A stretch of DNA of 30,952 nt, taken from the UHGV virus genome UHGV-0110025. The stretch is one strand, 5' to 3'. Positions within the stretch are counted from its first letter, which is position 1, and the number at the start of each line of letters is the position of its first letter. The position numbers and the translations under genes were made by a program. This DNA comes from a virus. A model generated the notes under the pieces. It was given only the letters and a program-made list of their open reading frames with translations, was not told the origin of the DNA and searched no databases. Of the stretch, positions 4,366-20,532 are shown piece after piece.

Positions 4366-6588
4366 TTGGCTGTTCAATTCGCTTATCCGTGGAATGCTCC
4401 ACGATCGGCTATAGCCAGCCCATACCTTACTTATAAGCAACAGCATCGCCGCGACCGTATGTTCGCGGCGATGCTGCATGCTAAAAAGGTGCTTTCTCTC
4501 CAGCCCGACTGCGTGCGGTTAGATGTTTATCGCACTGCGGCAGTGCTGGAGCAAAATCAGGGCATTCAACGAGCCAATGCCTTTTTGATCAGCTTCTGCA
4601 AAAAGGCATTGCCGCGTCTTGAATTGGTCGCAAAAAAATACGAATGCGCGGGTATCAACAGCAAGGTATCAACCTCTGTTTTTGGAAGTCATTTTGATAC
4701 CCAGCTTATGCAATATCTGGCGTCACGCATGGTTAATATGGTCGCCCGATATAACCGCCTCCCGGATATGTCGCGCGCTGATGTTGACCTGTTGGCCGCC
4801 GATATTGCTAATTTCATTCGTGGTGAACTTGCCAACATTAATGACCACGGATTCGGCGAGCTTAAAACGCTGTACACCTGGTATAATCGTGCTGGCTTTA
4901 TTTCCCTCCAGTTCAACGTTATCCCCCCCCATTGGGATCGGGTTGCAAAAAAATATGTTGGCGCGGATGAAATCGCACCGGCTATCGCCAAGATGTTTAA
5001 CGATGGGTGGTGGCGTGGTCGTTTGCGCCGGGTTGCAGCTACGTGGCGCGAACACCTGCAAATTGCAGTCGGCAACGTCAGCAAGAAAAAAAACACCTAT
5101 GCGAGTAAAAACTGCGTGACTGACTGGCGTGAACAAAAGCGCCGAACTCGTGAATTTCTCAAAGGTCTGGATCTCGAAGACGAAGACGGCAACCGTATCA
5201 GCCTGATTGAAAAATATGATGGCTCAGTTGCTAACCCTGCGATTCGCCGCTGTGAGCTCATGACTCGCATTCGTGGGTTTGAAAACATCTGTAATGAGCT
5301 CGGTTATGTCGGTGAGTTTTACACTCTGACCGCGCCGTCGAAATATCACGCCACGACTAAAGCCGGTTACCGTAACAGCAAATGGAGCGGTGCCTGCCCG
5401 GCTGACACGCAAAACTATCTAACTGATATCTGGGCGCGTATCCGTGCCAAACTGCATCGGGAAGATGTCCGTATTTTCGGTATTCGTGTCGCCGAGCCCC
5501 ATCACGACGGTACTCCACACTGGCACATGCTGATGTTCATGCTGCCGGAAGATGTTGAATATGTTCGCTCCATCGTCCGTAAATACGCGTGGAAAGAAGA
5601 CCGCCGCGAACTGAAAAGCGATAAGGCAAAAAAAGCACGTTTCCACGCCGAGTCCATTGACCCGGAGAAAGGCAGCGCAACCGGCTATGTTGCTAAATAC
5701 ATATCAAAAAATATCGACGGTTATGCTCTCGATGGTGAAACCGATAATGAAAGCGGTGAACTGCTGAAAGAGACAGCCCCCGCCGTTTCAGCATGGGCTT
5801 CGCGCTGGCACATCCGTCAGTTTCAGTTTATCGGTGGTGCGCCGGTGACGGTTTACCGTGAGTTGCGTCGCCTCGCTGATACCGAAACCGCGCACGGACT
5901 GAGCGTTGAGTTTGCCGCCGTCCATGATGCCGCCGACGCTGGTGACTGGGCTGGTTATGTTAATGCGCAGGGTGGACCGTTTGTCCGTCGCGATGATTTA
6001 CAGGTGCGCACACTGTATGAACCACGTACCGAGCTTAATCAGTACGGTGAGGAAACGGTATGTATTAAGGGGGTCTACGATTCCTCCATAGGTGCAGGTA
6101 GCCCGATTTTAACCCGGCTCACTCAGTGGAAGATTGTTCCGAAGCATGCTGTTGATTTGGCCGTTGACCTTCAGGACGGCAAAGCCGTCCCTCGGAGTTC
6201 TGTCAATAACTGTACGGGAAGTGAAAGCGATCCACCGATACTGGATTTAACAAAACCACAGAGTCGGCGCGAAAGACGAGAGCTGACCAACCGACTCAGG
6301 AAGCAAAAACCAGCAATACGGCGAAAATTCGTCCACGGAATGGATGAGCAAAACGCAGCTATAGCGAAAACTATCGACGAGATACATCTGACAACCAGCA
6401 TCACAATCAGCCGGGGCGAAGCCCTGCACCTGATGGCAGGTGGGAAAAGCTGTTTTGATGGCAAATGGCTAAGGGGAACATCCAAAGGGGAGATATTTTC
6501 CACTGTCCCATCGAACCAAGCTAAAGCTAGTAAAATCCTCAATCGTGTTGCAGCGTTGGTAGAAGCATCAAAGTTAATAGATGATTAA
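4366..6588 (+). CDS. A: Replication initiation endonuclease (P2 gpA family, rolling-circle HUH nickase)
   Basis: 740-aa ORF with a histidine-rich metal-binding region EPHHDGTPHWHMLMF and a downstream tyrosine motif GYVAKYISKN, typical of gpA initiators. Apparent TTG start at 4366 after a G-rich SD; an in-frame ATG lies at 4459. Confidence 0.9.
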   Translation: MAVQFAYPWNAPRSAIASPYLTYKQQHRRDRMFAAMLHAKKVLSLQPDCVRLDVYRTAAVLEQNQGIQRANAFLISFCKKALPRLELVAKKYECAGINSKVSTSVFGSHFDTQLMQYLASRMVNMVARYNRLPDMSRADVDLLAADIANFIRGELANINDHGFGELKTLYTWYNRAGFISLQFNVIPPHWDRVAKKYVGADEIAPAIAKMFNDGWWRGRLRRVAATWREHLQIAVGNVSKKKNTYASKNCVTDWREQKRRTREFLKGLDLEDEDGNRISLIEKYDGSVANPAIRRCELMTRIRGFENICNELGYVGEFYTLTAPSKYHATTKAGYRNSKWSGACPADTQNYLTDIWARIRAKLHREDVRIFGIRVAEPHHDGTPHWHMLMFMLPEDVEYVRSIVRKYAWKEDRRELKSDKAKKARFHAESIDPEKGSATGYVAKYISKNIDGYALDGETDNESGELLKETAPAVSAWASRWHIRQFQFIGGAPVTVYRELRRLADTETAHGLSVEFAAVHDAADAGDWAGYVNAQGGPFVRRDDLQVRTLYEPRTELNQYGEETVCIKGVYDSSIGAGSPILTRLTQWKIVPKHAVDLAVDLQDGKAVPRSSVNNCTGSESDPPILDLTKPQSRRERRELTNRLRKQKPAIRRKFVHGMDEQNAAIAKTIDEIHLTTSITISRGEALHLMAGGKSCFDGKWLRGTSKGEIFSTVPSNQAKASKILNRVAALVEASKLIDD

Positions 6589-6662
6589 TTTACATCCATA
6601 TCATGCACATACAATACCTGCATGATTCACTTTTTCTCTTCCCATCATTTGCTAATACGTGA

Positions 6663-6682
6663 TACTGTACAAATATACAGTT
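6663..6682. promoter_or_regulatory. LexA (SOS) box TACTGTACAAATATACAGTT
   Basis: CTGT-N8-ACAG with an AT-rich spacer, close to the E. coli LexA consensus TACTGTATATATATACAGTA. Lies about 20 bp upstream of the ATG at 6703, with a candidate -35 TTGCTA at 6649-6654. Confidence 0.7.
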
Positions 6683-6702
6683 ATCATATTGGGAGGGATT
6701 TC

Positions 6703-6888
6703 ATGGTTGGGGAACATTTCAGCCGAACGCAGCAAAAGTGGGCTTGTGTGCAATTCATTGCCGAGATATCTCTGGTTGCAAACTGCAAGCCAGCAGACTT
6801 AAAGCTTGCGCTTACTCTCATTGCTGATCTGGCAAACAGCGAAAACAACGAAGAACCAGAAAATGAAGTCTTTTATAAGGCTGAATAG
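6703..6888 (+). CDS. Small SOS-controlled protein, candidate Tum-like antirepressor
   Basis: 61-aa ORF with SD GGGAGGGA (6691-6698), immediately downstream of the LexA box. It is downstream of gene A, where 186 carries the LexA-regulated tum gene. The protein has an acidic C-terminus; sequence identity to Tum is not verified. Confidence 0.45.
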   Translation: MVGEHFSRTQQKWACVQFIAEISLVANCKPADLKLALTLIADLANSENNEEPENEVFYKAE

Positions 6889-6891
6889 GTT

Positions 6892-7026
6892 ATGAAAATT
6901 AATCTCACATTGGATAAGAAACAAAAACTAGGCCGACCGGTTATTGATGCCTTTCAATGCGAATTGACCAAGAGGACACTGTCTATTTTTCCGTCAACAT
7001 GTGGTGCCGTCAAGAGAGCACTATGA
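6892..7026 (+). CDS. Small basic hypothetical ORF (44 aa)
   Basis: MKINLTLDKKQKLGRPVIDAFQCELTKRTLSIFPSTCGAVKRAL. Starts 3 nt after the stop of the Tum-like ORF, in the same frame. Below the 60-aa cutoff of the supplied track; translated by hand. Confidence 0.3.
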   Translation: MKINLTLDKKQKLGRPVIDAFQCELTKRTLSIFPSTCGAVKRAL

Positions 7027-7148
7027 GTGGTGCTGAGTTGATGGAGTTTGATATAGATTCAGATCGCGAGGCGCTTGATGGTATTCTCCAAGAAATCTGG
7101 GAAGACGAGCAGTTGGCGGTAGTTAATGACAGAATGTGCAGACCATAA
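7023..7148 (+). CDS. Small acidic hypothetical ORF (41 aa)
   Basis: MSGAELMEFDIDSDREALDGILQEIWEDEQLAVVNDRMCRP. Its ATG overlaps the TGA of the preceding 44-aa ORF (ATGA), suggesting translational coupling. Confidence 0.35.
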   Translation: MSGAELMEFDIDSDREALDGILQEIWEDEQLAVVNDRMCRP

Positions 7149-7193
7149 CCCTATGTCTAGTTGCACGGAGGTTAGAAAAAATGCTGTCCGAAT

Positions 7194-7214
7194 TAGCCCT
7201 CTCTCAGAGGGCTA
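7194..7214 (+). terminator. Perfect 9-bp-stem hairpin TAGCCCTCT-CTC-AGAGGGCTA
   Basis: Inverted repeat read from the sequence, downstream of the small-ORF cluster and upstream of the 7347 operon. A T-run (tgctgttttt) follows only after about 15 nt, so intrinsic-terminator function is uncertain. Confidence 0.35.
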
Positions 7215-7271
7215 TGAATTAAAAATGCTGTTTTTGATATGTTAACCTCTTAACAGTTTCATCTTTAAATC

Positions 7272-7299
7272 TTGTAAAGTAAAACTTTGCGTTTATGAT
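7272..7299 (+). promoter_or_regulatory. Candidate sigma70 promoter for the 7347-8947 operon
   Basis: -35 TTGTAA (7272-7277), 16-nt spacer, -10 TATGAT (7294-7299), in an AT-rich intergenic region. AAGGAG Shine-Dalgarno at 7333-7338 precedes ATG 7347. Confidence 0.35.
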
Positions 7300-7346
7300 T
7301 GATAAAAATTAAAAAAGTATGAAGAGGCTGTAAAGGAGTTTTATCA

Positions 7347-7862
7347 ATGCCTGGATTCCAAAATGCACAGCAAAATCAATTTGATGATCATGCTCCAGAA
7401 ATGGAGATAAACTTAATCGTAGATGTTGCTGAGCAGCCCGTAGCCTTTACCTATCAATATAGTGAGCAAATTAGCCACCTTGCACCGCAATGTCCGCCAG
7501 CAGAAGCGATTGAATGTGACAAAGAATGCTGGCGCTTCACTCTCAATCCGATAACGGACAGTTGCTTTTGGCCTCCAAAAAGAAGGGTTCCTGAGAGGGT
7601 TGCCTCAGACAGTCAGCAGGAGTGCTCTATGTGGGCGTTGTCTATGTATGAATCAGAGCGACAAGCTGTAGTCGCTTATTCTGGGCTTTCTAAGTCAGTG
7701 AGAAATATTAAGAAAACAATTGGAGATCACCTTGCAAGAGGCACGGTAGCTTGTGGTGATGGTAGATGTATGCCTCCAAATAGAAAAGGCCATTTTGACT
7801 TTCATCCATATTTAGATACTGAGTTCCCTGATGGCTTTCAGGTAATAAGAGCATTACCATGA
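7347..7862 (+). CDS. Hypothetical Cys-rich protein, gene 1 of an accessory two-gene operon
   Basis: 171-aa ORF with strong SD, AT-rich codon usage unlike the phage backbone, several Cys pairs (CPPAEAIECDKEC ... CGDGRC). No motif I recognise. Stop overlaps the next start (ATGA at 7859-7862). Confidence 0.6.
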   Translation: MPGFQNAQQNQFDDHAPEMEINLIVDVAEQPVAFTYQYSEQISHLAPQCPPAEAIECDKECWRFTLNPITDSCFWPPKRRVPERVASDSQQECSMWALSMYESERQAVVAYSGLSKSVRNIKKTIGDHLARGTVACGDGRCMPPNRKGHFDFHPYLDTEFPDGFQVIRALP

Positions 7863-8947
7863 TAAAATTAGATGCTAAAAGAATCACTGCACCGGAGGTC
7901 GGAGATTACTCGTGGTATTCTGACTTGGTGTATTTTGATGGACCACTGATTTGTTTATTTCGAGGAAGTGGCTATAAGGATGCTCTTTATGTTTGGCTTG
8001 ATAATTCAACCAGAGCCAACCGCTGGTGTTTAATACCTGTATCAAGGTCAACTTTAGATTCCTATCTTAATCAAAGAATGAGTCTAAGAGAAATCATACA
8101 ATCAAACGAATATGTTTATATTTGCAATCACTTTGCAGAAACAGGACGAAAAAATTATAGCCGTCTGAGCGTAGATGATTTCCCTGAGGAATATATGCCT
8201 GATGCTGACTCATATTTATATGAAGAAATATGCACCGATGACGCACTATTGTTAAAGCAAGAACGCACATCTAGCTATATGCTAGGACTGGACAACCAGT
8301 TGTTTATAAATGATTTATCAGAAATTCCAAAAATTTTCGAACAATTGTATTCTTTCCACTATGGACTTGCCCACTTGGGCAGAATTTCCATTAGAAATAC
8401 CATGCTGCGATTGATGGGTAGTTGGACTGGTGGATTCTCAGCAGTAAATATTTTCACTGGTTTAAAGAATGTCATTCCTGTCCTGCACCGCCCAGAAGTT
8501 AGCTCACTTCAATATAACTCCCCCGGACATATTGAATTGAACTTGCTTCCTGACTTGGCGCAGAGCGTTCAGGATGTATCTGTTCGTGTTGAAAATGAAT
8601 TTATTTATGACCGTTTAGAGAAAATCTATAAAAACAATTACACATACTTTAAAGATAAAGATCTATCAGGTTTTGATGAGGGTGGAGGAATTGAGTTAAG
8701 GAACATCGACTCTGAAACCACAGAAAATCTTCGTAAGCGTGTTAGAATTTTCTTTAGGTGTTTAGGTTGGAAAACCTATCAAGCGCAGTTTGATATGATC
8801 GGTGCCCATCCCTTGCAGCAGTTACGCGCAGTTATGGCGTATTACAGACGCCTGAAAACATTACGAGAATATATTGTGGCAGATAAATTATTCATTGGTC
8901 ATTCGCGAGTGCCGGTAGAGCAAATTACTGTGAATACTGAAAATTAG
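7859..8947 (+). CDS. Hypothetical protein, gene 2 of an accessory two-gene operon
   Basis: 362-aa ORF translationally coupled to the upstream gene, AT-rich. No P-loop, HExxH, HIT or other motif recognised. Located between gene A and cos. Confidence 0.65.
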   Translation: MIKLDAKRITAPEVGDYSWYSDLVYFDGPLICLFRGSGYKDALYVWLDNSTRANRWCLIPVSRSTLDSYLNQRMSLREIIQSNEYVYICNHFAETGRKNYSRLSVDDFPEEYMPDADSYLYEEICTDDALLLKQERTSSYMLGLDNQLFINDLSEIPKIFEQLYSFHYGLAHLGRISIRNTMLRLMGSWTGGFSAVNIFTGLKNVIPVLHRPEVSSLQYNSPGHIELNLLPDLAQSVQDVSVRVENEFIYDRLEKIYKNNYTYFKDKDLSGFDEGGGIELRNIDSETTENLRKRVRIFFRCLGWKTYQAQFDMIGAHPLQQLRAVMAYYRRLKTLREYIVADKLFIGHSRVPVEQITVNTEN

Positions 8948-9073
8948 CTTTCTGCATGAGGATGCGTGAATCTGCATTATTTATTAATTCAACCCATAGA
9001 TACTGTAGGACGCAATAGGCATGGGCTTGAGACCAAAATGCAACTGCATTAAAACCGCCCCATTAAGCGGGTA

Positions 9074-9092
9074 GGCGTGGCGGGGAAAGCAT
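9074..9092. other. cos: cos site (19-nt cohesive end) GGCGTGGCGGGGAAAGCAT
   Basis: Differs at two positions from the P2 cohesive end as I recall it (GGCGAGGCGGGGAAAGCAC). Lies in a GC-rich non-coding stretch between the A-side accessory genes and portal gene Q, where cos sits in an integrated P2-type prophage. Confidence 0.7.
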
Positions 9093-9311: not shown

Positions 9312-10316
9312 CTAATTTACATGTATGTAGAGTTCACCGTCGCCAGACCAATCGGGACACTCTAAAACAAGCCCAAACTGCTTGAATATTTCATCAATGA
9401 TTATTGTTATCTCCCGAAAATCACCAAAACCTGTAATGTGCTGGTCATTAAACTTCCCATAAAGATTCTGAAAAGCAATGCCTAATTCTGATAATTGATA
9501 TCTTATCTTTGAGTTGGATAGTGTAAGGGATAGCTTTGGATCGTATTCTTTAATATTGATGTTTAGAGAATGGACATAACCCATCGCATAAGCATAAGAG
9601 TTGATGATTAGCCTGATACGTTTTTTTACTTCGAGATACATGTCATTCAGAGAAATATTACCGTACTTATAACCCCAGATGAGTTTTTCAATCTCGTCAG
9701 ATACTTCATTTACAACAGTGTCAAGATTCTCTAAAAATAAATCAATAGTTTCTTGAGGGGCAGACCCCGAAGACATGTAATTAGCGAGATATTCAGACCA
9801 TGCACGCGTGGCTGAGATAAGAAGCGCGCTACCATACTCGTTGACTGTAAAATTTTGGGCTAAGCATGTTAGTAAGTTTTTTTCATGTACGTGCACTAAT
9901 TCATGGTGAATGCGATGGATGACTGCGAGGTATCCTTCTTCTTTCAGTTTTAAGAAGCTACCATCATTGAAAAGCTCAACAAAAAAATCAATCGATAGCA
10001 CAAGGGTATATTCTTCACATAGCCCATCATTGCCAATTTTTGTTACTAACTGCCCGACGGCTGCGCCCTGTTTGCTATTGGTAAATGAACTAGGGGATTT
10101 GTGTTGGTAAGAGGATGTTACCTTTTGAAGAGCTTCACTGAAGTTATAGGAAACAATCACGCATTTTAATTTGGAGATATCAAGATTGAGATTTTTTGTT
10201 AAAGCTCGGATAGCTTCTAGTGTGAAATTACCGATATTATTTGCTTCTTGCTCAGTAGCGAAACCTTCGAGGGTTATTTTAAAATCAGTTTCCAAAATAT
10301 TAATCTCCGCGCCCAT
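9312..10316 (-). CDS. Hypothetical protein with HExxH zinc-metallopeptidase-like motif
   Basis: 334-aa ORF, AT-rich, containing IHRIHHELVHVHEKN (HELVH = HExxH, with a second HE just downstream). Inserted between cos and Q. No strong SD at ATG 10316. Confidence 0.65.
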   Translation of the reverse strand: MGAEINILETDFKITLEGFATEQEANNIGNFTLEAIRALTKNLNLDISKLKCVIVSYNFSEALQKVTSSYQHKSPSSFTNSKQGAAVGQLVTKIGNDGLCEEYTLVLSIDFFVELFNDGSFLKLKEEGYLAVIHRIHHELVHVHEKNLLTCLAQNFTVNEYGSALLISATRAWSEYLANYMSSGSAPQETIDLFLENLDTVVNEVSDEIEKLIWGYKYGNISLNDMYLEVKKRIRLIINSYAYAMGYVHSLNINIKEYDPKLSLTLSNSKIRYQLSELGIAFQNLYGKFNDQHITGFGDFREITIIIDEIFKQFGLVLECPDWSGDGELYIHVN

Positions 10317-10393: not shown

Positions 10394-11440
10394 TTATTCT
10401 GGGTTGTCGAGGGTGTACTCTTTGAACCTGATGACCTCCATACCGAGCCAGTCGTTTACCTCCCTGAACCTATCCTGCAGGGGTGACAGCTCATTACGCA
10501 CAAATACCTTTGCCACCTTCTCAACGTCACCGAGTGAACCGATATTCTCGGGCTTGCCGCCCATGAGCTGGAACGGTACGCGGTGCGCGTCCATCAGATC
10601 GGCGGCACTGGCCTTCTTGATGTTGAAAAAGTCATCCTTTGTGGCGACCTCGCTCAGTGGCACGATTTTGATGCCGTCCGGTTTTCCGCCGGGAGCGTAG
10701 AAAAACAGGTTCTTAAAGTTGCCGAGCCCTTTTGAGTTGCGCATCGCCTCGCGCAGCGATTCGACGTCGGTCGCGCTCTGCGCCGGGTCAGTCACATACA
10801 TGATGTAACCCGCGTGCGCGCCGTTCTGATAATACTTGCGGCGGAACAGCGTCGCGGATTCATTCAGCCAGGCGGAATTTAGCGCGCTGAGATATTCGGG
10901 CAGGCCGTAAATCTCCTGATTAATGTCGGGCTCCAGCAGGTGAAACACGGTATCAGGCGCGAACTCGTGCGGCTGGGTGAAGTTTTCCACAAACCAGAAA
11001 ATCGAATCGTCGACTCCGCGTCGGGTGTATTTGGCTGGCGAGGCCAGCAGTTTGATTAACTGGCCGGTGACGCTGTGGCGCTGCTCAAGAAAGGCGTTAC
11101 CGAACACCAGATAATCGAGCGCAAAGCGGCTGAAATCCTGACGGGATAACAACGGGTGCGGAATGTAGGTGCTCGCGAGCACGTTACGCTTAACATAAAT
11201 TGGCGAGCTGTGATGCACGGCAGAGCGCAGGCTCTTTGCCAGCCCTGAGAAGCTGACCGGCGGCTCGTACCATTTGCCGTTACTGATGCACTCGACGTAA
11301 TCCAGAATGTCGCGCTTATCGAGTACCGGCACCGGCTCGCCGAAGGTGAACGCTGTCGTTTTTGGCGGTGCGCTGGCGGTCAGTTGTTGTGGTTTGCTGG
11401 CCTTTTGTGCGTTGGCTTTACGGGATTTTTGTTTACCCAT
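10394..11440 (-). CDS. Q: Portal protein (P2 gpQ family)
   Basis: 348-aa ORF on the minus strand immediately upstream of terminase P, the P2 Q-P arrangement next to cos. N-terminal basic region and overall length fit gpQ. Confidence 0.9.
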   Translation of the reverse strand: MGKQKSRKANAQKASKPQQLTASAPPKTTAFTFGEPVPVLDKRDILDYVECISNGKWYEPPVSFSGLAKSLRSAVHHSSPIYVKRNVLASTYIPHPLLSRQDFSRFALDYLVFGNAFLEQRHSVTGQLIKLLASPAKYTRRGVDDSIFWFVENFTQPHEFAPDTVFHLLEPDINQEIYGLPEYLSALNSAWLNESATLFRRKYYQNGAHAGYIMYVTDPAQSATDVESLREAMRNSKGLGNFKNLFFYAPGGKPDGIKIVPLSEVATKDDFFNIKKASAADLMDAHRVPFQLMGGKPENIGSLGDVEKVAKVFVRNELSPLQDRFREVNDWLGMEVIRFKEYTLDNPE

Positions 11441-11441
11441 T

Positions 11442-13211
11442 TTAGTTGAACTCCAGAATAGATTTAGGCTGCATGCCGCTACCGGCAGAAAGCGGTTCGT
11501 TTAACAGGGCGTGCATGGTCGCCCATGCGATATCGGCGTGGCTGGCTTCCTCGGTGCGGCTGGCCTCATAGGTGGCGCTGCGCCCGCTGCTGGTCATGGT
11601 TTTGCGGATGGACATAAACGACTGCGTGACGTCGGTTGCTCCGGCGTCGTACTCCAGACAGCCACGGCGAATGGTGTCTTTCGCCTTGAGTACCATTGCG
11701 GTTTTCATTTCAGGTGTGTAACGGATGCCGCGTGCCGCCGGGTAAAATGAGCGCACCAGCTGGAACACGCCGAGACCGAGGCCGGTTGCGTCAATGCCGA
11801 TGTATTCGACGTTGTATTTCTCGGTCAGCTTGCGGATGCCCTCTGCCTGTGCTGCAAAATCCATGCCCTTCCACTGGTGGCGCTCCAGCATGCGGAACTT
11901 GCCACCAGAGACCACCGGCGGCGCGAGCACGACGCACCCGGCACTGTCGCCGGTGTGTGACGGGTCGTAGCCAATCCAGACAGGACGAGAGCCGAACGGA
12001 TGGTCGGCGAACGGGGCAAAGTCCTCCCATTCCTCCATCACATCGACCATGCAGCGCTGCAGCTCCTCGAACGGGAATACCGACGCTTTATCGTCGACAA
12101 ACTCGCACATAAACAGGTTCTTAAAGTCCTCATCACTGTTTTCGCGTTTGAGCTGGTCGAGGTCGAACAGGGTGCAGCCACCCGCAAGGGCGTCCTCAAT
12201 GGTGACAATCTGCCGCCACTGGCCATCGTCGCAGAGCTGGCCACCGGCGAGCGCGCTGTGACTGATGTCGATTTCGATGCGGTCGGCAATCCGGCTGCGC
12301 CCCTTGTTGAACAGCTCGCCAGACCAGAAGGGGTAAGCGCCGTGCGCCAGCGTGGAAGGTGTCGAAAAATAGGTCGAGCGCAGGTGCTTTTGCGAGGCCA
12401 TGCCCGAGGCGACTTTGCGCAGTTTCTGAAAATTCGGGATCCAGAATATTTCATCGACATACAGATCGCCGTTATGGCTCTGCGCGGTGTTGGAATTGGT
12501 ACCGAGAAAAATCAGTTTTGCGCCGTTGTTACCGATGACAATCGGGTCGCCAGTCAGGTCAACGTCGACCAGTCGCGCAAACTGGATGATGTATTCGCGG
12601 AACACGTAAGCCTGCGTTTTACTGGCTGATAAAAATATCTGGTTATGGCCGGTTTTGAGTGCGCGCAGCAGTGCCTCGCGGGAGAAATAGAATGTCGCGC
12701 CAATCTGGCGGGATTTGAGAATGTCACGAATACGGTGCTCCAGTCCTGCGCGGTACCACTGCAACTGGTACTCGAAAGACTGGTCGAAAAATAATTCCTC
12801 TAGTTTATCGATAGCCTCGTCGCTGAAAAAATTCTTTTTCGGCTTTTTGCGCTCCCCTTTGTTGCGGTTGGCGACGTTGGGGTTAAGGTCGGCTTCGTTG
12901 CCGGTCTGGCTGTAGCGGTTGACTCGCGCCAACCGTTCAATCTGCCGTCCGAGCAGGTCAATCTCTTTGAAATCACCCCCTGTCTTTTGCGGCTTGGCGA
13001 TGAGCTGAATCAGCCTAGCCTCAAGGCTGCTTTCAACGCGGGAAATCGGCGCGATGCCGTCCCAGCCGTCGCGCTGCTTCCAGCTCTGCACGGTCGGGCG
13101 CTTGACCTGCAGCATTTCGGCAATCTGTGGCACGGAAAAACCCTGCCAGTAAAGCAGCGATGCCTGCCGTCGCGGGTCATGCAACAAGGTTGTATCGGTG
13201 GAAATGGTCAT
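11442..13211 (-). CDS. P: Terminase large (ATPase) subunit (P2 gpP family)
   Basis: 589-aa ORF; stop is 1 nt from the Q start. Divergent from O-N-M-L as in P2. Confidence 0.9.
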   Translation of the reverse strand: MTISTDTTLLHDPRRQASLLYWQGFSVPQIAEMLQVKRPTVQSWKQRDGWDGIAPISRVESSLEARLIQLIAKPQKTGGDFKEIDLLGRQIERLARVNRYSQTGNEADLNPNVANRNKGERKKPKKNFFSDEAIDKLEELFFDQSFEYQLQWYRAGLEHRIRDILKSRQIGATFYFSREALLRALKTGHNQIFLSASKTQAYVFREYIIQFARLVDVDLTGDPIVIGNNGAKLIFLGTNSNTAQSHNGDLYVDEIFWIPNFQKLRKVASGMASQKHLRSTYFSTPSTLAHGAYPFWSGELFNKGRSRIADRIEIDISHSALAGGQLCDDGQWRQIVTIEDALAGGCTLFDLDQLKRENSDEDFKNLFMCEFVDDKASVFPFEELQRCMVDVMEEWEDFAPFADHPFGSRPVWIGYDPSHTGDSAGCVVLAPPVVSGGKFRMLERHQWKGMDFAAQAEGIRKLTEKYNVEYIGIDATGLGLGVFQLVRSFYPAARGIRYTPEMKTAMVLKAKDTIRRGCLEYDAGATDVTQSFMSIRKTMTSSGRSATYEASRTEEASHADIAWATMHALLNEPLSAGSGMQPKSILEFN

Positions 13212-13376
13212 TGATGCCTCGCCGTAGTGGATTCAGGGCAAGGCTACTTAATGGCCGTCAGTGATTCGCTAAGGTGCTGTTGTGTGGGCGGTTGTCCAGT
13301 CGTCATTGGTGGTCTGGCGTGTCCTGAGTCTGGAAACTGGCGGTGACCAGTAACCTCAACCTCAGGACTCCTGACA

Positions 13377-14231
13377 ATGGCAAAAAAAGTCTCAAAATTC
13401 TTTCGCATCGGCGTCGAGGGTGACACCTGCGACGGCCGCATTATCAGCGGCAACGATATTCAGGAAATGGCCGAATCGTTTGACCCTCGCGTCTACGGTT
13501 GCCGCATTAACCTTGAGCATATTCGCGGTCTCTTTCCTGATGGCGACTTCAAACGCTTAGGCGATGTGGTTGAACTGAAAGCTGAAATAATTGACGACGA
13601 TTCTGCGCTTAACGGCAAATGGGCGTTGTTCGCCAGAATCACCCCAACCGACGACCTGATTGCGATGAATAAAAAATTGCAGAAGGTCTACACCTCAATG
13701 GAAATTCAGCCGAATTTTGCCAATACCGGCAAATGCTACCTCGTCGGCCTTGCTGTCACCGATGACCCGGCGAGCCTCGGCACTGAATACCTCGAATTCT
13801 GCCGCAACGCGAAGCACAACCCTCTGCAGCGCTTTAAGGCCAACCCTGAAAACGTTTTTTCCGCTGCCACGCTGGCCGAACTGGAATTTGAAGACGTTCC
13901 CGATACGGTGCTAAACAGCCTGGCAGATAAGGTGAAAGCCATTTTCAGCCGTAAGCAGGTCAGCGACGATGCGCGCCTGAATGATGTGCATGAAGCGGTG
14001 AGCACCGTCAGCGAGCATGTGCAGACCAACCTCACTGCGCAGGATAAGCGTCTTTCCGCTATGGAAGCCGCGCTTACCACCTTTAAACAGGAACTGACCG
14101 GCAAGATTGAAGAAACCAGCCAGGCATTTTCCGCCCTGAAAGCCACCCTCGACAAAACCGAAAGTTTCAGCCAGCCGCGACGCACGAAAGCCAGCGGCGG
14201 TGGTGGCGATGAGCTGCTGACCGACTGCTGA
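13377..14231 (+). CDS. O: Capsid scaffolding protein (P2 gpO family)
   Basis: 284-aa ORF, first gene of the rightward capsid operon, with an acidic coiled-coil-like C-terminal half. N-terminus MAKKVSKFFRIGVEGDTCDGR... matches gpO as I recall it. Confidence 0.9.
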   Translation: MAKKVSKFFRIGVEGDTCDGRIISGNDIQEMAESFDPRVYGCRINLEHIRGLFPDGDFKRLGDVVELKAEIIDDDSALNGKWALFARITPTDDLIAMNKKLQKVYTSMEIQPNFANTGKCYLVGLAVTDDPASLGTEYLEFCRNAKHNPLQRFKANPENVFSAATLAELEFEDVPDTVLNSLADKVKAIFSRKQVSDDARLNDVHEAVSTVSEHVQTNLTAQDKRLSAMEAALTTFKQELTGKIEETSQAFSALKATLDKTESFSQPRRTKASGGGGDELLTDC

Positions 14232-14307
14232 TAAACCGCAGACCAGAAACCGGGCGGTAACTCCGCCCGATGCAGTGACTAACCGATAAATTCAAACAGG
14301 AAATACT

Positions 14308-15375
14308 ATGCGCCCGGAAACCCGTTTTAAGTTCAATGCCTATCTGACCCGCGTCGCTGAGCTGAACGGCATCAGCACTGATGACGTCAGTAAAAAATTC
14401 ACCGTCGAGCCGTCCGTCACGCAAACGCTGATGAACAAAGTGCAGGAGTCATCCGCGTTTCTGCAGACGATTAACATTCTGCCGGTTGCAGAAATGAAGG
14501 GTGAGAAAATCGGCGTCGGTGTGACCGGTACTATCGCCAGCACGACCGACACCTCGGGCGATGATGAGCGTAAGACCGCAGACTTCACCGCGCTTGAGTC
14601 CAACAAGTACGAGTGCGACCAGATTAACTTTGACTTCCATCTGAAATATAAAACCCTCGACCTGTGGGCGCGTTTTCAGGACTTTCAGCGCCGCATCCGT
14701 GACGCCATTGTTAAGCGTCAGGCGCTCGATTTCATCATGGCCGGTTTTAACGGTACCACCCGCGCCGCCACCTCTGACCGCACCAAAAATCCGATGCTGC
14801 AGGATGTAGCCGTCGGCTGGCTGCAGAAATACCGCAACGAAGCCCCGACGCGTGTGATGAGCAATATCACCGATGCTGACGGTAAGGTCGTTTCGGCAGT
14901 GATTCGCGTCGGTAAAAACGGCGACTATGAGAACCTCGACGCGCTGGTGATGGATGCTACCAACAACCTGATTGACGAGGTTTATCAGGATGACCCGAAA
15001 CTCGTTGCCATCGTTGGCCGTAAGCTGCTGGCCGACAAATATTTCCCGCTGGTGAACAAGCCGCAAGAAAACAGCGAAGCGCTCGCGGCAGATATCATCA
15101 TCAGCCAGAAGCGAATCGGCAACCTGCCTGCTGTGCGTGTGCCGTACTTCCCGGCGAATGCCGTGTTAGTGACAACGCTGGAAAACCTCTCTATCTATTT
15201 CATGGATGAGAGCCACCGCCGCAGCATTGATGAAAACCCGAAAAAAGACCGCGTGGAAAACTACGAGTCAATGAATATCGACTATGTGGTCGAGGCGTAT
15301 GCCGCCGGGTGTCTGCTGGAAAACATCACCCTGGGCGATTTCACCGCACCTGCAGCACCGGAAAGCGGAGAGTAA
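14308..15375 (+). CDS. N: Major capsid protein (P2 gpN family)
   Basis: 355-aa ORF following O; length, position and high GC backbone composition fit gpN. Confidence 0.9.
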   Translation: MRPETRFKFNAYLTRVAELNGISTDDVSKKFTVEPSVTQTLMNKVQESSAFLQTINILPVAEMKGEKIGVGVTGTIASTTDTSGDDERKTADFTALESNKYECDQINFDFHLKYKTLDLWARFQDFQRRIRDAIVKRQALDFIMAGFNGTTRAATSDRTKNPMLQDVAVGWLQKYRNEAPTRVMSNITDADGKVVSAVIRVGKNGDYENLDALVMDATNNLIDEVYQDDPKLVAIVGRKLLADKYFPLVNKPQENSEALAADIIISQKRIGNLPAVRVPYFPANAVLVTTLENLSIYFMDESHRRSIDENPKKDRVENYESMNIDYVVEAYAAGCLLENITLGDFTAPAAPESGE

Positions 15376-15379
15376 GCCC

Positions 15380-16129
15380 ATGACGAGCCCCGCACAGCGT
15401 CACATGATGCGGGTCTCGGCCTCTCAAGCCGCGCAGCGGGAACAAGCCCCGCTGCGCCATGCAACCGCCTACGAGCAGATGCTGGTAAAGCTGGCCGATG
15501 ACCGCCGCACGTTGAAAACCATCCGTTCAAACGAACTGAAAGCCGCGAAAAAGCGTGAGCTGCTGCCGTTCTATGCGCCGTGGGTCGCCGGTGTGCTGGC
15601 TGATGGCCGTGGTGCGCAGGATGACATTCTGATGACAGTCATGCTGTGGCGTCTCGATGCCGGTGATATCGCTGGCGCGCTGGAAATTGCGCCATACGCG
15701 CTGAAGTACGGCCTCACCTCTGACTATCGCCGCACGACACCTTACATGCTGGTTGAGGAGGTGGCGCTTGCCGCGCTGCGCCTGCGCGATGCCGGTGAGC
15801 CTGTCGACCTCGCATTACTGCTGACCACCCTTAGCCTGACCGACGGCGCTGACGTTCCCGATATGGTGCGCGCTCGACTGCATAAGGTGACCGGTCTAAC
15901 CCTGCGCGATGCCGGTCAGAGCGCCGAAGCACTGGCACAGTTTCAGCGCGCGATGCAGCTCGACCGCAATGCCGGTGTGCGCAAAGAGATTGAGCGACTG
16001 GAGCGGGCATTGAAGCCTAAGCCCGATGCCGCGCCCCGTAAAACGACTAAACCGCGCACGCGCAAACCTGCCACCAAACCGGCGGCAAAGCGCGGGCGTC
16101 CACCAAAGGCGGTAAAAACCGCCGGTTAA
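15380..16129 (+). CDS. M: Terminase small (endonuclease) subunit (P2 gpM family)
   Basis: Start placed at ATG 15380 (MTSPAQRHMMR...), 4 nt after the N stop with GGAG upstream; the six-frame ORF extends upstream into N. Basic Pro/Lys/Arg-rich C-terminus. Confidence 0.85.
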   Translation: MTSPAQRHMMRVSASQAAQREQAPLRHATAYEQMLVKLADDRRTLKTIRSNELKAAKKRELLPFYAPWVAGVLADGRGAQDDILMTVMLWRLDAGDIAGALEIAPYALKYGLTSDYRRTTPYMLVEEVALAALRLRDAGEPVDLALLLTTLSLTDGADVPDMVRARLHKVTGLTLRDAGQSAEALAQFQRAMQLDRNAGVRKEIERLERALKPKPDAAPRKTTKPRTRKPATKPAAKRGRPPKAVKTAG

Positions 16130-16222
16130 CTGAACGCTCCCCGAGCCGGGCGGCACGCCGGTCAAAGCGGGTTTTGACCCTGACGGCGACCGGCGTCCAC
16201 CGCCCAACCTAATGAGGTTGTC

Positions 16223-16732
16223 ATGACGACAGTAATACTGAATCAGCCCGACGAACCGCAGGACGTACCGGGCGTGGTGATTCCCGCACCGGAGACGGGC
16301 GACGCAGTGATTAAAAACACGTTCTTTTTCCCTGATGTGGATCCGAAGCGGGTGCGCGAGCTGATGCGCCTTGAGCAGACGGTTTCCGATGCGCGCCTGC
16401 GCAACGCCATCAAGACCGGCATGGCGGAAACCAATGCGGAGCTTTACGACTACCGGCTGCGCCAGATTGCCGCAGGGTTTAAGACACTGGCCGACGTGCC
16501 TGACGCCGAGGAAATCGACGGCGAGAATGTGCGCGTTTTCCACTACCTCAGCGCCGTGACGGCGATGGCGACCGCCACCCTGTATGAGCGTTATCGCGGG
16601 GTTGAGGCCACCGGCAAGGGTGACAAAAAAGCCGACAGCGTCGAAACCACCATTGATGACCTGTGGCGGGATATGCGCTGGTCGGTCTCGCGCCTGCAGG
16701 ATAAGCCGCGCTGCATCGTGGGTCAGCTCTGA
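16223..16732 (+). CDS. L: Head completion/stabilisation protein (P2 gpL family)
   Basis: 169-aa ORF after M, in the conserved position and of the expected size. Confidence 0.85.
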   Translation: MTTVILNQPDEPQDVPGVVIPAPETGDAVIKNTFFFPDVDPKRVRELMRLEQTVSDARLRNAIKTGMAETNAELYDYRLRQIAAGFKTLADVPDAEEIDGENVRVFHYLSAVTAMATATLYERYRGVEATGKGDKKADSVETTIDDLWRDMRWSVSRLQDKPRCIVGQL

Positions 16733-16935
16733 TGAAAGTCTACGCGATGCAGGGCGACACCATCGACGCGCTTTGCGCCCGGTATTACGGGCGCACTGAG
16801 GGCGTGGTCGAGGCTGTGCTGCAGGCTAATCCCGGTCTGTCTGAGCTGGGCGTCATTCTGCCGCATGGCACGGCAATTGACCTGCCCGACGTGGCATCGT
16901 CACCCGTAACAGAAACTATCAACCTTTGGGAGTAA
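16732..16935 (+). CDS. X: Tail protein X (P2 gpX family)
   Basis: 67-aa ORF overlapping the L stop, in the conserved position preceding the lysis genes. Confidence 0.8.
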   Translation: MKVYAMQGDTIDALCARYYGRTEGVVEAVLQANPGLSELGVILPHGTAIDLPDVASSPVTETINLWE

Positions 16936-16938
16936 ACC

Positions 16939-17235
16939 ATGACAGAAGGGGAAAAAGGCGTCCTGTCACTGTTTGTGATTGGCGTGATGATTGTTGTCGG
17001 AAAAGTGCTGGCGGGTGGTGAGCCCATTACCCCGCGCCTGTTTATCGGCCGCATGCTGCTCGGCGGTTTTGTTTCAATGGTCGCCGGTGTTGTTCTGGTG
17101 CAGTTTCCAGATATGTCACTGCCTGCCGTTTGTGGGATTGGATCCATGCTCGGCATTGCAGGTTATCAGGTGGTGGAAATCGCCATTCAGCGCCGCTTTA
17201 AGTCACAACAGGGGGATAGCGATGCCGGTCATTAA
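16939..17235 (+). CDS. Y: Holin (P2 gpY-like)
   Basis: 98-aa protein with hydrophobic transmembrane segments (VLSLFVIGVMIVVGKVL..., LLGGFVSMVAGVVLV...) and a charged C-terminus, immediately upstream of the endolysin. Confidence 0.7.
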   Translation: MTEGEKGVLSLFVIGVMIVVGKVLAGGEPITPRLFIGRMLLGGFVSMVAGVVLVQFPDMSLPAVCGIGSMLGIAGYQVVEIAIQRRFKSQQGDSDAGH

Positions 17236-17719
17236 TACTCACCAGAATATCGCCGCGTTTCTGGACATGCTGGCCTATTCCGAAGGGACGGCGATGCATC
17301 CGCTGACGAAAAATCGTGGTTACGACGTCATTGTCACTGGCATTGATGGCAAGCCGGAAATTTTCACCGACTACACCGACCACCCTTTCGCACATGGCAG
17401 ACCAGCGAAAGTGTTTAATCGACGCGGCGAAAAATCCACGGCATCAGGGCGTTACCAGCAGCTTTATCTCTACTGGCCGCACTATCAGAAACAGCTCGCA
17501 TTGCCTGATTTCAGCCCGTTGTCGCAGGACAAACTTGCGATTCAGTTAATCCGGGAGCGCGGTGCCATTGAGGATATTAAAGCGGGGCGTATTGAGCGAG
17601 CAATTTCACGTTGCCGCAATATATGGGCGTCGCTGCCGGGTGCAGGTTACGGCCAGCGTGAGCACAGCCTCGACAAACTGGTCACTGTGTGGCGCACGGC
17701 TGGCGGGGTGATGGCATGA
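17222..17719 (+). CDS. K: Endolysin (P2 gpK / lambda R-like lytic transglycosylase)
   Basis: Start at ATG 17222 (MPVINTHQNIAAFLDMLAYSEGT...), overlapping the holin 3' end. Lysozyme-like sequence. Confidence 0.85.
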   Translation: MPVINTHQNIAAFLDMLAYSEGTAMHPLTKNRGYDVIVTGIDGKPEIFTDYTDHPFAHGRPAKVFNRRGEKSTASGRYQQLYLYWPHYQKQLALPDFSPLSQDKLAIQLIRERGAIEDIKAGRIERAISRCRNIWASLPGAGYGQREHSLDKLVTVWRTAGGVMA

Positions 17720-18129
17720 AAATCCTGATAACGCTGCTGGTGCTGGCCGTGCTCGGGCTGCTGTGGTTGCGCCATGAGAACGGCAATTTATCCCGCTCCT
17801 TTGAGACGGCAAACCGCGTCGCAAGCGAACAAAAGACGACGATTGGCATGCTGAAAAATCAGCTCAGTGTTGCCGGTCAGCTTGCCCGACGTAATGAATC
17901 CGCGCAGGTGGAACTGCGCGAACAGCTCGCAAAGGCCAGCGCAGAGGCCAGCCGCCGTGAGCAGACGATAACGAGGTTACTTAATGAAAATGAAGCCTTT
18001 CGCCGCTGGTATAACGCTGCTTTGCCTGATGTTGTGCGTCGGCTGCACACCCGCACCGCCTGCGCCAGTGCCGGTGATTGTGGTCAGCGGATGCCCGAGG
18101 GTGAGCCTTTGTCCGATGCCGGGAAGTGA
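17716..18129 (+). CDS. lysB: Inner-membrane spanin (LysB / Rz-like)
   Basis: Start at ATG 17716 (MKILITLLVLAVLGLLWL...): N-terminal TM anchor followed by a coiled-coil-like periplasmic region. Confidence 0.7.
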   Translation: MKILITLLVLAVLGLLWLRHENGNLSRSFETANRVASEQKTTIGMLKNQLSVAGQLARRNESAQVELREQLAKASAEASRREQTITRLLNENEAFRRWYNAALPDVVRRLHTRTACASAGDCGQRMPEGEPLSDAGK

Positions 18130-18274
18130 CCCGAAAACCAATGGTGACCTGAGCGCAGATATCCGCCGTCTTGAGGGCGCGCTGACCGCCTGCGCGCTGC
18201 AGGTTAAAACCGTCAAACACTGTCAGGATGAACTCGATGCAGAAGCACAAAAGCCTGCGCAAAGCGCTGATTAA
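17984..18274 (+). CDS. lysC: Outer-membrane lipoprotein spanin (LysC / Rz1-like), overlapping lysB in another frame
   Basis: ORF begins inside lysB in a different frame and extends past its stop. N-terminus MKMKPFAAGITLLCLMLCVGC has signal-peptide and lipobox-like features; mature part is Pro-rich. The LCVGC lipobox is non-canonical. Confidence 0.5.
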   Translation: MKMKPFAAGITLLCLMLCVGCTPAPPAPVPVIVVSGCPRVSLCPMPGSDPKTNGDLSADIRRLEGALTACALQVKTVKHCQDELDAEAQKPAQSAD

Positions 18275-18704
18275 CGCCGTGCCGCAGCTCCGAAATAATC
18301 CCGATATGCTGCGCCTTTTTGCCGACAACGGCCATACCGATTCCCGACTGGCGAGCTCGCTGTCGTTTGAAAAGGTGTACGTGCTTAACGTGGTGGTTAC
18401 CGACTTCACCGGTGACCTTGATTTGATATTCGTGCCGGTGCAGGCGTGGCTGCGTGAACATCAGCCGGACATTATGACCACCGACGACGGGCGGGAAAAA
18501 AGATTCACCTGGATTATTGATATCAATAACGACGATTCGCTCGATATCAGTATCAGCCTGAGGCTCACCGAGCGCACGCTCGTCAAAGAGGTCGACGGCG
18601 CGCTGCACGTCAGCTATGCCCCTGAGCCGCCACTGCCTGAGCCGGTGACGCGCCCGGTCGAGCTGTACGTTAACGGCGAACTGGTGAGTAAGTGGGATGA
18701 GTGA
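18237..18704 (+). CDS. R: Tail completion protein R (P2 gpR family)
   Basis: Start at ATG 18237 (MQKHKSLRKAL...) with AGGA 8 nt upstream; the six-frame ORF begins at 18228. Confidence 0.8.
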   Translation: MQKHKSLRKALINAVPQLRNNPDMLRLFADNGHTDSRLASSLSFEKVYVLNVVVTDFTGDLDLIFVPVQAWLREHQPDIMTTDDGREKRFTWIIDINNDDSLDISISLRLTERTLVKEVDGALHVSYAPEPPLPEPVTRPVELYVNGELVSKWDE

Positions 18705-19143
18705 ATTAACCGCGCTGCAGGAACGCCTTGCCGGTCTGATTGCCAGCCTGTCACCGGCGGCACGTCGGCAAATGGCGGCTGAGATTGCGAAAAAGCTGCG
18801 TACCAGTCAGCAACAGCGTATCAAGCGCCAGCAGGCACCCGACGGCACCCCGTATGCGGCACGAAAGCGCCAGCCGGTGCGGAGCAAGAAAGGTCGGATT
18901 AAACGTGAAATGTTCGCCAAACTGCGCACCAGTCGCTTTATGAAAGCCAAAGGCAGCGACAGTGCGGCGGTGGTGGAGTTTACCGGCAAGGTGCAGCGCA
19001 TGGCGCGGGTTCATCAGTACGGCCTCAAAGACCGGCCAAACCGTAACAGCCGGGATGTGCAGTACGAGGCGCGCCCGTTGCTCGGTTTCAATAGTATAGA
19101 TATGAGAATTATTGAGCGGTTAATAATTGGGGCTTTGGATTAA
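18697..19143 (+). CDS. S: Tail completion / virion morphogenesis protein S (P2 gpS family)
   Basis: 148-aa ORF overlapping the R stop, last gene of the capsid-lysis late operon. Confidence 0.8.
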   Translation: MSELTALQERLAGLIASLSPAARRQMAAEIAKKLRTSQQQRIKRQQAPDGTPYAARKRQPVRSKKGRIKREMFAKLRTSRFMKAKGSDSAAVVEFTGKVQRMARVHQYGLKDRPNRNSRDVQYEARPLLGFNSIDMRIIERLIIGALD

Positions 19144-19171: not shown

Positions 19172-19200
19172 AGGCTGGATAAACACCAGCCTTGATTTTA
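19172..19200 (+). terminator. Rho-independent terminator after gene S
   Basis: Perfect 7-bp stem AGGCTGG / CCAGCCT with a 7-nt loop (19172-19192) followed by TGATTTTAT. Sits between the convergent S and HIT-like gene 3' ends. Confidence 0.45.
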
Positions 19201-19842
19201 TAGTTTGAAATCTGCGTAATTATCAATAACCTCTAGAACACCGCTGATATTGTTATCTCTGCGCCAATTCCAATTGCCATGTATCAAATTTGCATTAGAA
19301 TAAAGATATCTAAGGAACTGAGATGGTAAGAGTGGTTTGTTGCATAAAAATTCATCATAACTATTACTCATATACCACACATATCCATTTTTAATGTCAA
19401 AACTTAAATTCTCACCTTCAATTTTCTTAAAGTTAATTTCTTTATTTAGAGCATTTTCAAACTCTTGTGTATAATAAACACAGTGTATATGAGCGTGAGA
19501 AATGCACCCTCCTGAACGATCTATATTTTCACCTGCTCCGCTTTCAAAGAAAATTAGAGATCTACCAGATTGGTGGATTATAAATTCATTAAGTTCTCGC
19601 AGAATCTCCTTGCCATTACTCCGGGTATCTCGATCAAGAGCAGCAAAGGAGTTGATATGCCGCTTAGGAATCAGCATCACATGCGAATTATTTAGCGGGC
19701 CAATACTAGGTACAATTAGAAAATCATTTGTTTCTGCAATGATATTTTTCTTGTCATTTACGATTTCATCGTATCCTTTGATAAGGCTAATGCCATTTAT
19801 TTCATCGCATATTCCACAGAACGAATTACAAGAATTATTCAC
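19198..19842 (-). CDS. HIT (histidine-triad) superfamily nucleotide hydrolase/transferase-like protein with C-terminal extension
   Basis: N-terminal CNSFCGIC, then FLIVPSIGPLNNSHVMLIPKRHI and the histidine triad SGGCISHAHIHCV, matching the Hint/HIT pattern (C-x-F-C ... H-x-L-V-I-P-K-x-H-I ... H-x-H-x-H). About 90 aa follow the triad. Apparent GTG start; AT-rich island. Confidence 0.75.
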   Translation of the reverse strand: MNNSCNSFCGICDEINGISLIKGYDEIVNDKKNIIAETNDFLIVPSIGPLNNSHVMLIPKRHINSFAALDRDTRSNGKEILRELNEFIIHQSGRSLIFFESGAGENIDRSGGCISHAHIHCVYYTQEFENALNKEINFKKIEGENLSFDIKNGYVWYMSNSYDEFLCNKPLLPSQFLRYLYSNANLIHGNWNWRRDNNISGVLEVIDNYADFKL

Positions 19843-20356
19843 GTTTATTGTCTCCTGGTTTTTTAGGGAGCAATTTTTCAGCCCAAGATGCGAGTCGGCT
19901 TAGAACTAAGTCTGAAAAATATCCTAATATAAAACAAATCGAGAATGCAATTTTGGTCTTACCATGCCCTTTAATGGAGGATACAAACGTATCCGGAGAT
20001 AATATCGTATAAGAACAAAAAGCCACTAAAGCAGCTAAGAACGGAATAAAAATCCTCCAGTAGAACTTATGGGATTCCCAAGGAAAATTATACTGATTGT
20101 TTTTCCCTCTAGCAGTTACTCTATAAAACCATTTTGCATTATACACCCACCCTCCAAAAAAACCGCCAAGAATAGAAAACAAAGATATTTTATTATTATA
20201 TGACAGCTCAAAAACAAATTGGAAAAGAAAGGCGAGAATGCAACCTATTACAAAAAGAACTATTAAATAAGCAAATTCGAATTTTATTTGTTCACAATCG
20301 TTATTAAAATAAGGCACAACCTCATCATCGCCTAAGGTTTTTTTTCTTTCAGTCAT
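19835..20356 (-). CDS. Multi-pass membrane protein, upstream partner of the HIT-like gene
   Basis: About four hydrophobic helices (FAYLIVLFVIGCILAFLFQFVF, ISLFSILGGFFGGWVY, IFIPFLAALVAFCSYTIL, IAFSICFILGYFSDLVL). Its stop overlaps the HIT-like start by 8 nt. Start taken at ATG 20356 (SD GAAGGTG 8 nt upstream); the six-frame ORF extends to 20407 (TTG), with another ATG at 20401. Confidence 0.6.
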   Translation of the reverse strand: MTERKKTLGDDEVVPYFNNDCEQIKFEFAYLIVLFVIGCILAFLFQFVFELSYNNKISLFSILGGFFGGWVYNAKWFYRVTARGKNNQYNFPWESHKFYWRIFIPFLAALVAFCSYTILSPDTFVSSIKGHGKTKIAFSICFILGYFSDLVLSRLASWAEKLLPKKPGDNKRE

Positions 20357-20532
20357 TTGCCAAACACCTTCATTTTTTACTGTGAGCCAGGGTAATTGCA
20401 TATTCAACTTGGCTATTCTAATTAATTCTCACAAGATTTCATAGATGTTGAGTAGACCTCTCAGAAGTTGTTTCATTCCTCACAGAATCCATCTCGATTG
20501 CCACTAATCTTGCCGGGCGTCATCCTTCCCAT

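Follow-up and report, generated by a model that had tools for sequence, protein, structure and literature searches.

What do the two AT-rich genes between gene A and cos of this P2-family genome encode, and do they constitute a genuinely undescribed system, as the original prediction supposed? The window, by which we mean the whole 30,952-nucleotide stretch that was analysed (UHGV virus genome UHGV-0110025), has the backbone of a 186/PSP3-like member of the Peduoviridae (P2 family). From the ORF list and the raw sequence we confirmed a co-oriented pair of genes on the plus strand, A at 7347..7862 (171 aa) and B at 7859..8947 (362 aa). The stop codon of A overlaps the start codon of B as ATGA (7859..7862, +, read from sequence) in an arrangement of translational coupling, and the pair is preceded by a Shine-Dalgarno sequence as strong as had been claimed (AAGGAG at 7333..7338, +, 8 nt 5′ of the A ATG, read from sequence). 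The pair had also been credited with a promoter-like sequence of its own: a weak, putative sigma-70-like promoter (TTGTAA-16-TATGAT at 7272..7299, +) is indeed present, but it matches at 9/12 positions, and the region has no excess of such sites (11 found vs. 12.1 expected from shuffled sequence), and for this reason we rejected it as evidence.

The surroundings of the pair bear out its predicted placement. The record of Salmonella phage PSP3 begins at the annotated cohesive end (cos), and this first position aligns to window position 9074; by this alignment cos occupies 9074..9092 (+) and reads GGCGTGGCGGGGAAAGCAT; gene A, annotated in relatives as replication endonuclease or GpA, occupies 4366..6588. 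The pair falls between these landmarks, in the slot where P2 carries old and tin, and its composition sets it apart from the backbone (40.1% GC vs. 50.8% in gene A, 51.4% over the entire window and 56.6% in the morphogenesis genes, 10394-18600) and marks it as a foreign, AT-rich cargo operon. The variable cargo region, P2 ‘hotspot 1’, extends from the end of gene A to the conserved cos region (6589..9037, no strand assigned; GC 39.9%), with similarity to phage records picking up again at 9038, and contains, besides the A-B pair, a small phrog_1993 ORF and a broken DinI-like gene. The DinI-like gene (6892-7148, +) appears to be broken: weak DinI matches fall in two frames that overlap each other (6892-7026, 6957-7148), in agreement with a pseudogene labelled ‘DinI-like family protein, frameshifted’ at the equivalent place in E. 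coli relatives. Between this remnant and the operon, at 7195-7213, two 8-bp arms pair perfectly around a 3-nt loop (AGCCCTCT-CTC-AGAGGGCT). This inverted repeat could be an operator, or it could terminate the early operon upstream; it was passed over in the terminator scan because no T-run stands directly 3′ of the repeat.

We found that standard defence-annotation models recognise both proteins. PADLOC matched A to PD-T4-10_A (PDLC04023; E 6.5e-69, 228 bits, model positions 4-148 of 148) and B to PD-T4-10_B (PDLC04024; E 3.3e-169, 561 bits, model positions 1-351 of 353). PD-T4-10 was recovered from E. coli ECOR65 in a functional selection for T4 resistance (Vassallo et al., 2022, Nat Microbiol, PMC9519451), where it was described as two overlapping ORFs for which no function was predicted; the lengths of the E. 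coli pair (516 + 1092 − 4 = 1604 bp) correspond to the published ECOR65 interval, 196254-197857. The window pair shares with the ECOR65 system both protein families, the gene order, the 4-nt overlap and the slot between gpA and the portal gene, with nearly the same protein sizes (171 + 362 aa vs. 171 + 363 aa); it differs in being a diverged allele (identity to the E. coli-type pair 67% for A, 88% for B and 76% for DNA) that stands closer to a Klebsiella/Raoultella-type cassette (83% for A, 90% for B). The 76%-identical copy occurs in 13 of 5,426 complete E. coli genomes, in the same slot of a P2-like prophage. Taken as a whole, the window pair is very probably a diverged PD-T4-10 orthologue, that is, an abortive-infection toxin-antitoxin (TA) module carried as prophage cargo in the slot between gene A and cos.

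How, then, could the locus have passed for something new? The exact window proteins are already in public E. coli draft assemblies, labelled ‘hypothetical protein’, the RefSeq label of the E. coli B orthologue goes no further than ‘DUF6575 domain-containing’, and scans of A and B against Pfam, NCBIfam and PHROGs gave no match beyond a sub-threshold DUF6575 for B, all of which would fit an undescribed defence system. Against this stand the strong, full-length matches to both PD-T4-10 models, which the same PADLOC models extend to distant family members, and the published, experimental validation of PD-T4-10, which together make the idea of an undescribed system highly improbable. The A-B system is already known, having been described and validated in 2022, and is caught by models in routine use; the claim of novelty falls. 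The guess of a defence function from location was sound. For the genome scan, the locus is to be relabelled from a candidate new system to an annotatable instance of PD-T4-10, and the slot formed by gene A, cos and Q in P2-like prophages is confirmed here as a good predictor of defence cargo. In the 2022 study, 4 of the 21 new systems came from the P2 interval bounded by the genes for the replication endonuclease and the portal, and the hotspot was named there (PMC9519451).

The pair is kept together well beyond this slot. In all 23 distinct loci examined, A immediately precedes B and its stop codon overlaps the start codon of B (ATGA in 19/23); these loci range from Enterobacterales to Pseudomonas, Marinobacter and Lysobacter and lie both within and outside prophages; non-prophage chromosomal settings were seen in Marinobacter, P. 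syringae, Pectobacterium and Lysobacter, and the more distant members inspected have the same overlap arrangement. Homologues of B form 108 clusters at 90% (Enterobacterales, Pseudomonas, Marinobacter, Halomonadaceae and Lysobacter/Stenotrophomonas), and an exhaustive profile search gathered homologues of A in 1,365 clusters at 50% identity, so that the module is spread far wider than its E. coli prophage copies, a breadth that could guide experiments. The P2-like context, in which gpA flanks the pair on its upstream side and the portal gene on its downstream side, recurs in at least 12 loci, which answers the co-occurrence check that had been proposed.

This distribution bears on whether the pair might serve a core phage function (structure, replication or packaging). 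The position beside cos and gene A is the sole support for that reading; in 50,697 deposited phage genomes we found neither copies of PD-T4-10 nor phage-encoded mimics of A, the pair also resides in chromosomal contexts unconnected with phages, and in base composition it stands apart from the backbone. Moreover, other genes replace it in the gene A-cos slot of the closest sequenced phage, vB_EcoM-613R3, which is how a cargo hotspot is expected to behave. We consider a core phage function barely conceivable.

Both genes are conserved in relatives and bear the marks of purifying selection (pN/pS vs. a Klebsiella-type copy, L012, of 0.23 for A and 0.085 for B), which settles in their favour the question of coding signal that had been raised. 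The synonymous divergence of the two genes from the Klebsiella-type cassette (L012 and L011 compared) differs two-fold, with pS of 0.34 for A and 0.62 for B, which suggests a recombination breakpoint inside the operon and hence a mosaic cassette.

What the pair does can be read, with due reserve, from the validated system. In ECOR65, B expressed alone is toxic and co-expressed A neutralises it fully; a deletion of A was not obtainable, and deletion of B abolished defence (PMC9519451). The system protected strongly against T-even phages at low, but not at high, multiplicity of infection (PMC9519451), which implies abortive infection. By sequence kinship we would expect the same of the window pair, with B (7859..8947, +) as the toxic effector, A (7347..7862, +) as the neutralising ‘antitoxin’, and abortive infection of T-even phages as the outcome; the range of phages that trigger the window allele could nonetheless differ, given that its A is 67% identical to the validated protein. 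P2 old and tin share with PD-T4-10 the gene A-cos locus and the role of prophage-encoded exclusion (PMC9519451), and differ from it in that their proteins and mechanisms are unrelated.

A different purpose for the same architecture would be selfish: the pair might stabilise its prophage by post-segregational killing, with defence incidental to, or absent from, the window allele. Such an addiction module would be in keeping with the toxin-antitoxin arrangement, with an E. coli A that cannot be deleted, and with the presence of the pair at chromosomal sites outside prophages. Yet the orthologue was obtained from a selection for phage resistance, which is lost with B, and the slot in which the pair sits exchanges defence cargo (old, tin, an AIPR family protein). 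In addition, a search of 72,556 plasmids, from which the pair is essentially missing, returned two weak matches that cover the C-terminal domain of B alone, and this near-absence speaks against plasmid addiction as its main role. We therefore hold addiction to be improbable and retain abortive infection as the preferred reading.

We next turn to A itself, which the model divides into two parts. Residues 1-35 form a disordered, Gln- and acid-rich extension that is found in the enterobacterial copies only, and residues 36-171 are predicted to fold into a compact globular core (pLDDT >93). Across 221 diverse members, C93, S99, G139 and H149 are conserved in 100%, and C49, P50, R63, P76, R84, G126 and F150 in at least 97%. 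The description of A as Cys-rich holds for the window protein, which has seven cysteines, and fails for the family, in which C49 and C93 alone are conserved. Likewise, the statement that neither protein has an assignable motif remains true of biochemistry (sub-threshold DUF6575 for B and no Pfam match for A) and is untrue of PADLOC, which matches both.

The predicted fold of the A core resembles that of ADP-ribosyltransferases (ARTs), which we treat as a new lead rather than an established fact; the ART-fold proteins named beside A are Rhs ART toxins, DarT, the diphtheria, pertussis, LT and CARDS toxins, Tne2, Tse6, AcrF11 and Arr. In the model, R63 lies on strand 1, S99 lies on strand 2 and is followed by a long helix, and H149 opens strand 5 after a loop. 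The R-S-E class of ARTs carries at those three positions an Arg, a Ser-Thr-Ser motif and the catalytic Glu. From topology, and without superposition, we infer that R63, S99 and H149 may be the counterparts of the R-S-E positions. None of the catalytic triads of ARTs (H-Y-E, R-S-E or the R-E-S of RES proteins) is present in A, however, as the invariant His149 takes the place of the Glu and the A family has no conserved Glu, and we know of no active ART configuration in which His replaces Glu. The Cys-Cys-His set could instead form a metal site in the predicted structure.

Remote-homology searches with A were near-silent outside PADLOC. A Foldseek search of the PDB with the A model returned nothing significant, two A profiles (A4 and A6) run against PDB sequences found no match, profile searches of the PDB that drew on three alignments in total yielded nothing meaningful, and Pfam gave no match for 77 members of the A family at E values up to 10. 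The published HHpred tables of the 2022 authors likewise contain noise alone for both PD-T4-10 proteins. The check by remote homology and structure that had been suggested was productive in part: PADLOC identified both proteins and monomer models were made, while Pfam, NCBIfam, PHROGs and the PDB profiles contributed next to nothing. None of the profile methods connected A with RES proteins, with KptA or with other ART families, and this, like the Foldseek result, counts against the ART reading.

In P. syringae, the PD-T4-10-like pair is followed ~600 bp downstream by a gene of opposite orientation for a RES-domain protein, an ART-fold toxin (L006-L008, 6716-7942), and this gene and the pair together probably form a small defence or TA islet. 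Comparison of the A family with this RES-domain protein by hhalign gave a probability of 2%, that is, no relationship.

We also considered A as a canonical type II antitoxin, and rejected it: A has no HTH, RHH or AbrB domain, its conserved part is folded (pLDDT >93), and its one disordered part (residues 1-35), where a toxin-binding segment of the usual kind might be sought, is absent from most members. We reasoned that the lack of a DNA-binding domain, the compact globular form of the conserved core and the ART-like predicted fold with its near-invariant R63, S99 and H149 together set A apart from conventional type II antitoxins.

In the mechanism that we favour, the ATGA overlap would couple translation so that A and B are produced together and in matched amounts, and in the uninfected lysogen the globular core of A would hold B in an inactive state, most likely by binding to it directly at 1:1. 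Upon infection by a T-even-type phage, B would escape A and bring about arrest or death of the cell before progeny are released, by which sister lysogens would be protected. Two routes of escape can be envisaged: A may be lost once host gene expression is shut off, by analogy with RnlAB/LsoAB, or a phage product may act on the A-B complex. RnlAB and LsoAB are TA modules that abort T4 infection, and their labile antitoxins decay after T4 shuts off host expression; they serve here as a possible model for the activation step of PD-T4-10.

The neutralisation step could, however, be enzymatic. The ART-like fold and the near-invariant R63, S99 and H149 of the model hint that NAD+ or a related ligand may serve neutralisation or sensing, and A might then act in the manner of a type VII antitoxin, as an NAD+-using ART-fold enzyme that modifies B or the target of B, with defence firing once the activity of A or its substrate is lost in infection; this alternative differs from simple binding in the neutralisation step only. 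The globular core, the lack of a DNA-binding domain and the catalytic-looking residues lead us to give enzymatic or ligand-dependent neutralisation a minor share of our belief, as an unlikely reading that merits attention. More doubtful again is the fuller proposal that A, published as an antitoxin without a known fold, is a catalytically active member of a large and so far unrecognised branch of the ART fold (~1,365 clusters at 50% identity, invariably paired with a DUF6575-type toxin), with an R-S-H signature, and that it neutralises or gates its toxin through NAD+-dependent chemistry. If true, PD-T4-10 would be without precedent among TA and defence modules in using an ART-fold protein as antidote or sensor and not as poison. 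Should A use NAD+, the family would bring a new logic to toxin-antitoxin immunity; otherwise the window adds one more allele of a known system.

The comparison with other TA modules makes the contrast plain. In RES-Xre, MbcTA, ParST, NatRT and DarTG, the ART fold belongs to the toxin, which is paired with an antitoxin that is an Xre protein, a COG5642 protein or a macrodomain. Here, by contrast, the protein with the ART-like predicted fold would be the neutraliser, the toxin would be an unrelated protein of 362 aa, and A has neither sequence similarity to those toxins nor an R-E-S or H-Y-E signature. HepT/MntA (HEPN-MNT), a type VII TA system, is also among the closest known systems. Beyond the 2022 paper we found no mechanism for PD-T4-10 or DUF6575 in the literature, and a 2024 review gives the function as unknown. 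Among the validated E. coli systems, PD-T4-10 is one of those whose proteins both lack an assigned fold and activity, and an ART-like predicted fold of its neutraliser, with near-invariant Arg, Ser, His and two Cys residues, could guide experiments.

For B, the AlphaFold model (pLDDT 91.3, pTM 0.89) predicts a beta-rich, DUF6575-like N-terminal domain (residues ~1-135) and a mainly helical C-terminal domain with one hairpin (residues ~140-350). The match to Pfam DUF6575 scores 21.5 bits, below the cut-off of 26.6, and covers residues 43-116 alone; across 100 members of the B family, DUF6575 matches were weak in 94 (best E 3.9e-8), and the Pfam scan of these members did not disclose a consistent hidden family. 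The residues that remain invariant even in relatives of 23-29% identity include D22, D48, N54, R55, W56, Y112, D145, D152, Y164, S221-P-G, Y329 and R330, a set that hints at an active or binding site and matches none known. The C-terminal domain of B shows no four-helix HEPN fold with an Rx4-6H motif.

This C-terminal domain also occurs by itself. A 213-aa protein of Salmonella enterica (NZ_CP092913.1; L033, 3004-3645) corresponds to the C-terminal domain of B alone (hhalign probability 99.3%; PADLOC PD-T4-10_B E 1e-34) and is encoded immediately past ogrK, where a P2-like prophage ends; we found no A-like gene upstream of it. The existence of this stand-alone homologue indicates that the two domains of B are separable, which could likewise guide experiments. 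Many GenBank entries shorten B to 250 or 251 aa by placing its start at the internal Met113, and PADLOC model PDLC04025 (244 positions) mirrors this shortened annotation; conservation of the N-terminal domain, together with the ATGA overlap, shows the true gene to be the long one.

Other accessory genes were noted in the window. Between cos and the portal gene Q, a 334-aa, AT-rich ORF (9312-10316, −) matches phrog_11743 (unknown function) alone, with no match in Pfam, NCBIfam or PADLOC; vB_EcoM-613R3 has a hypothetical-protein gene, also of 334 aa, at the same place by its portal gene (L032, 4775-5779; likeness by length and place), and in E. coli relatives the place is taken by an AIPR family protein or by a different hypothetical protein. 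The 334-aa ORF is possibly a further cargo gene beyond cos. A second AT-rich island (19198-20407, −; 33-38% GC) lies between a tail-completion gene (18697-19143) and baseplate gene V (from 20533), and holds two overlapping, co-oriented ORFs, neither of them in PADLOC: a 190-aa multi-pass membrane protein without a family match (19835-20407, −) and a 214-aa HIT-like protein (19198-19842, −) with matches to Pfam HIT, DcpS_C and CwfJ_C_1 above threshold and an HAHIH motif. We regard these two as a candidate for an uncharacterised accessory or defence pair at a second variable locus of P2. Finally, a small accessory gene between the integrase and the CI repressor (1125-1532, −) encodes a 136-aa DUF2511 protein.
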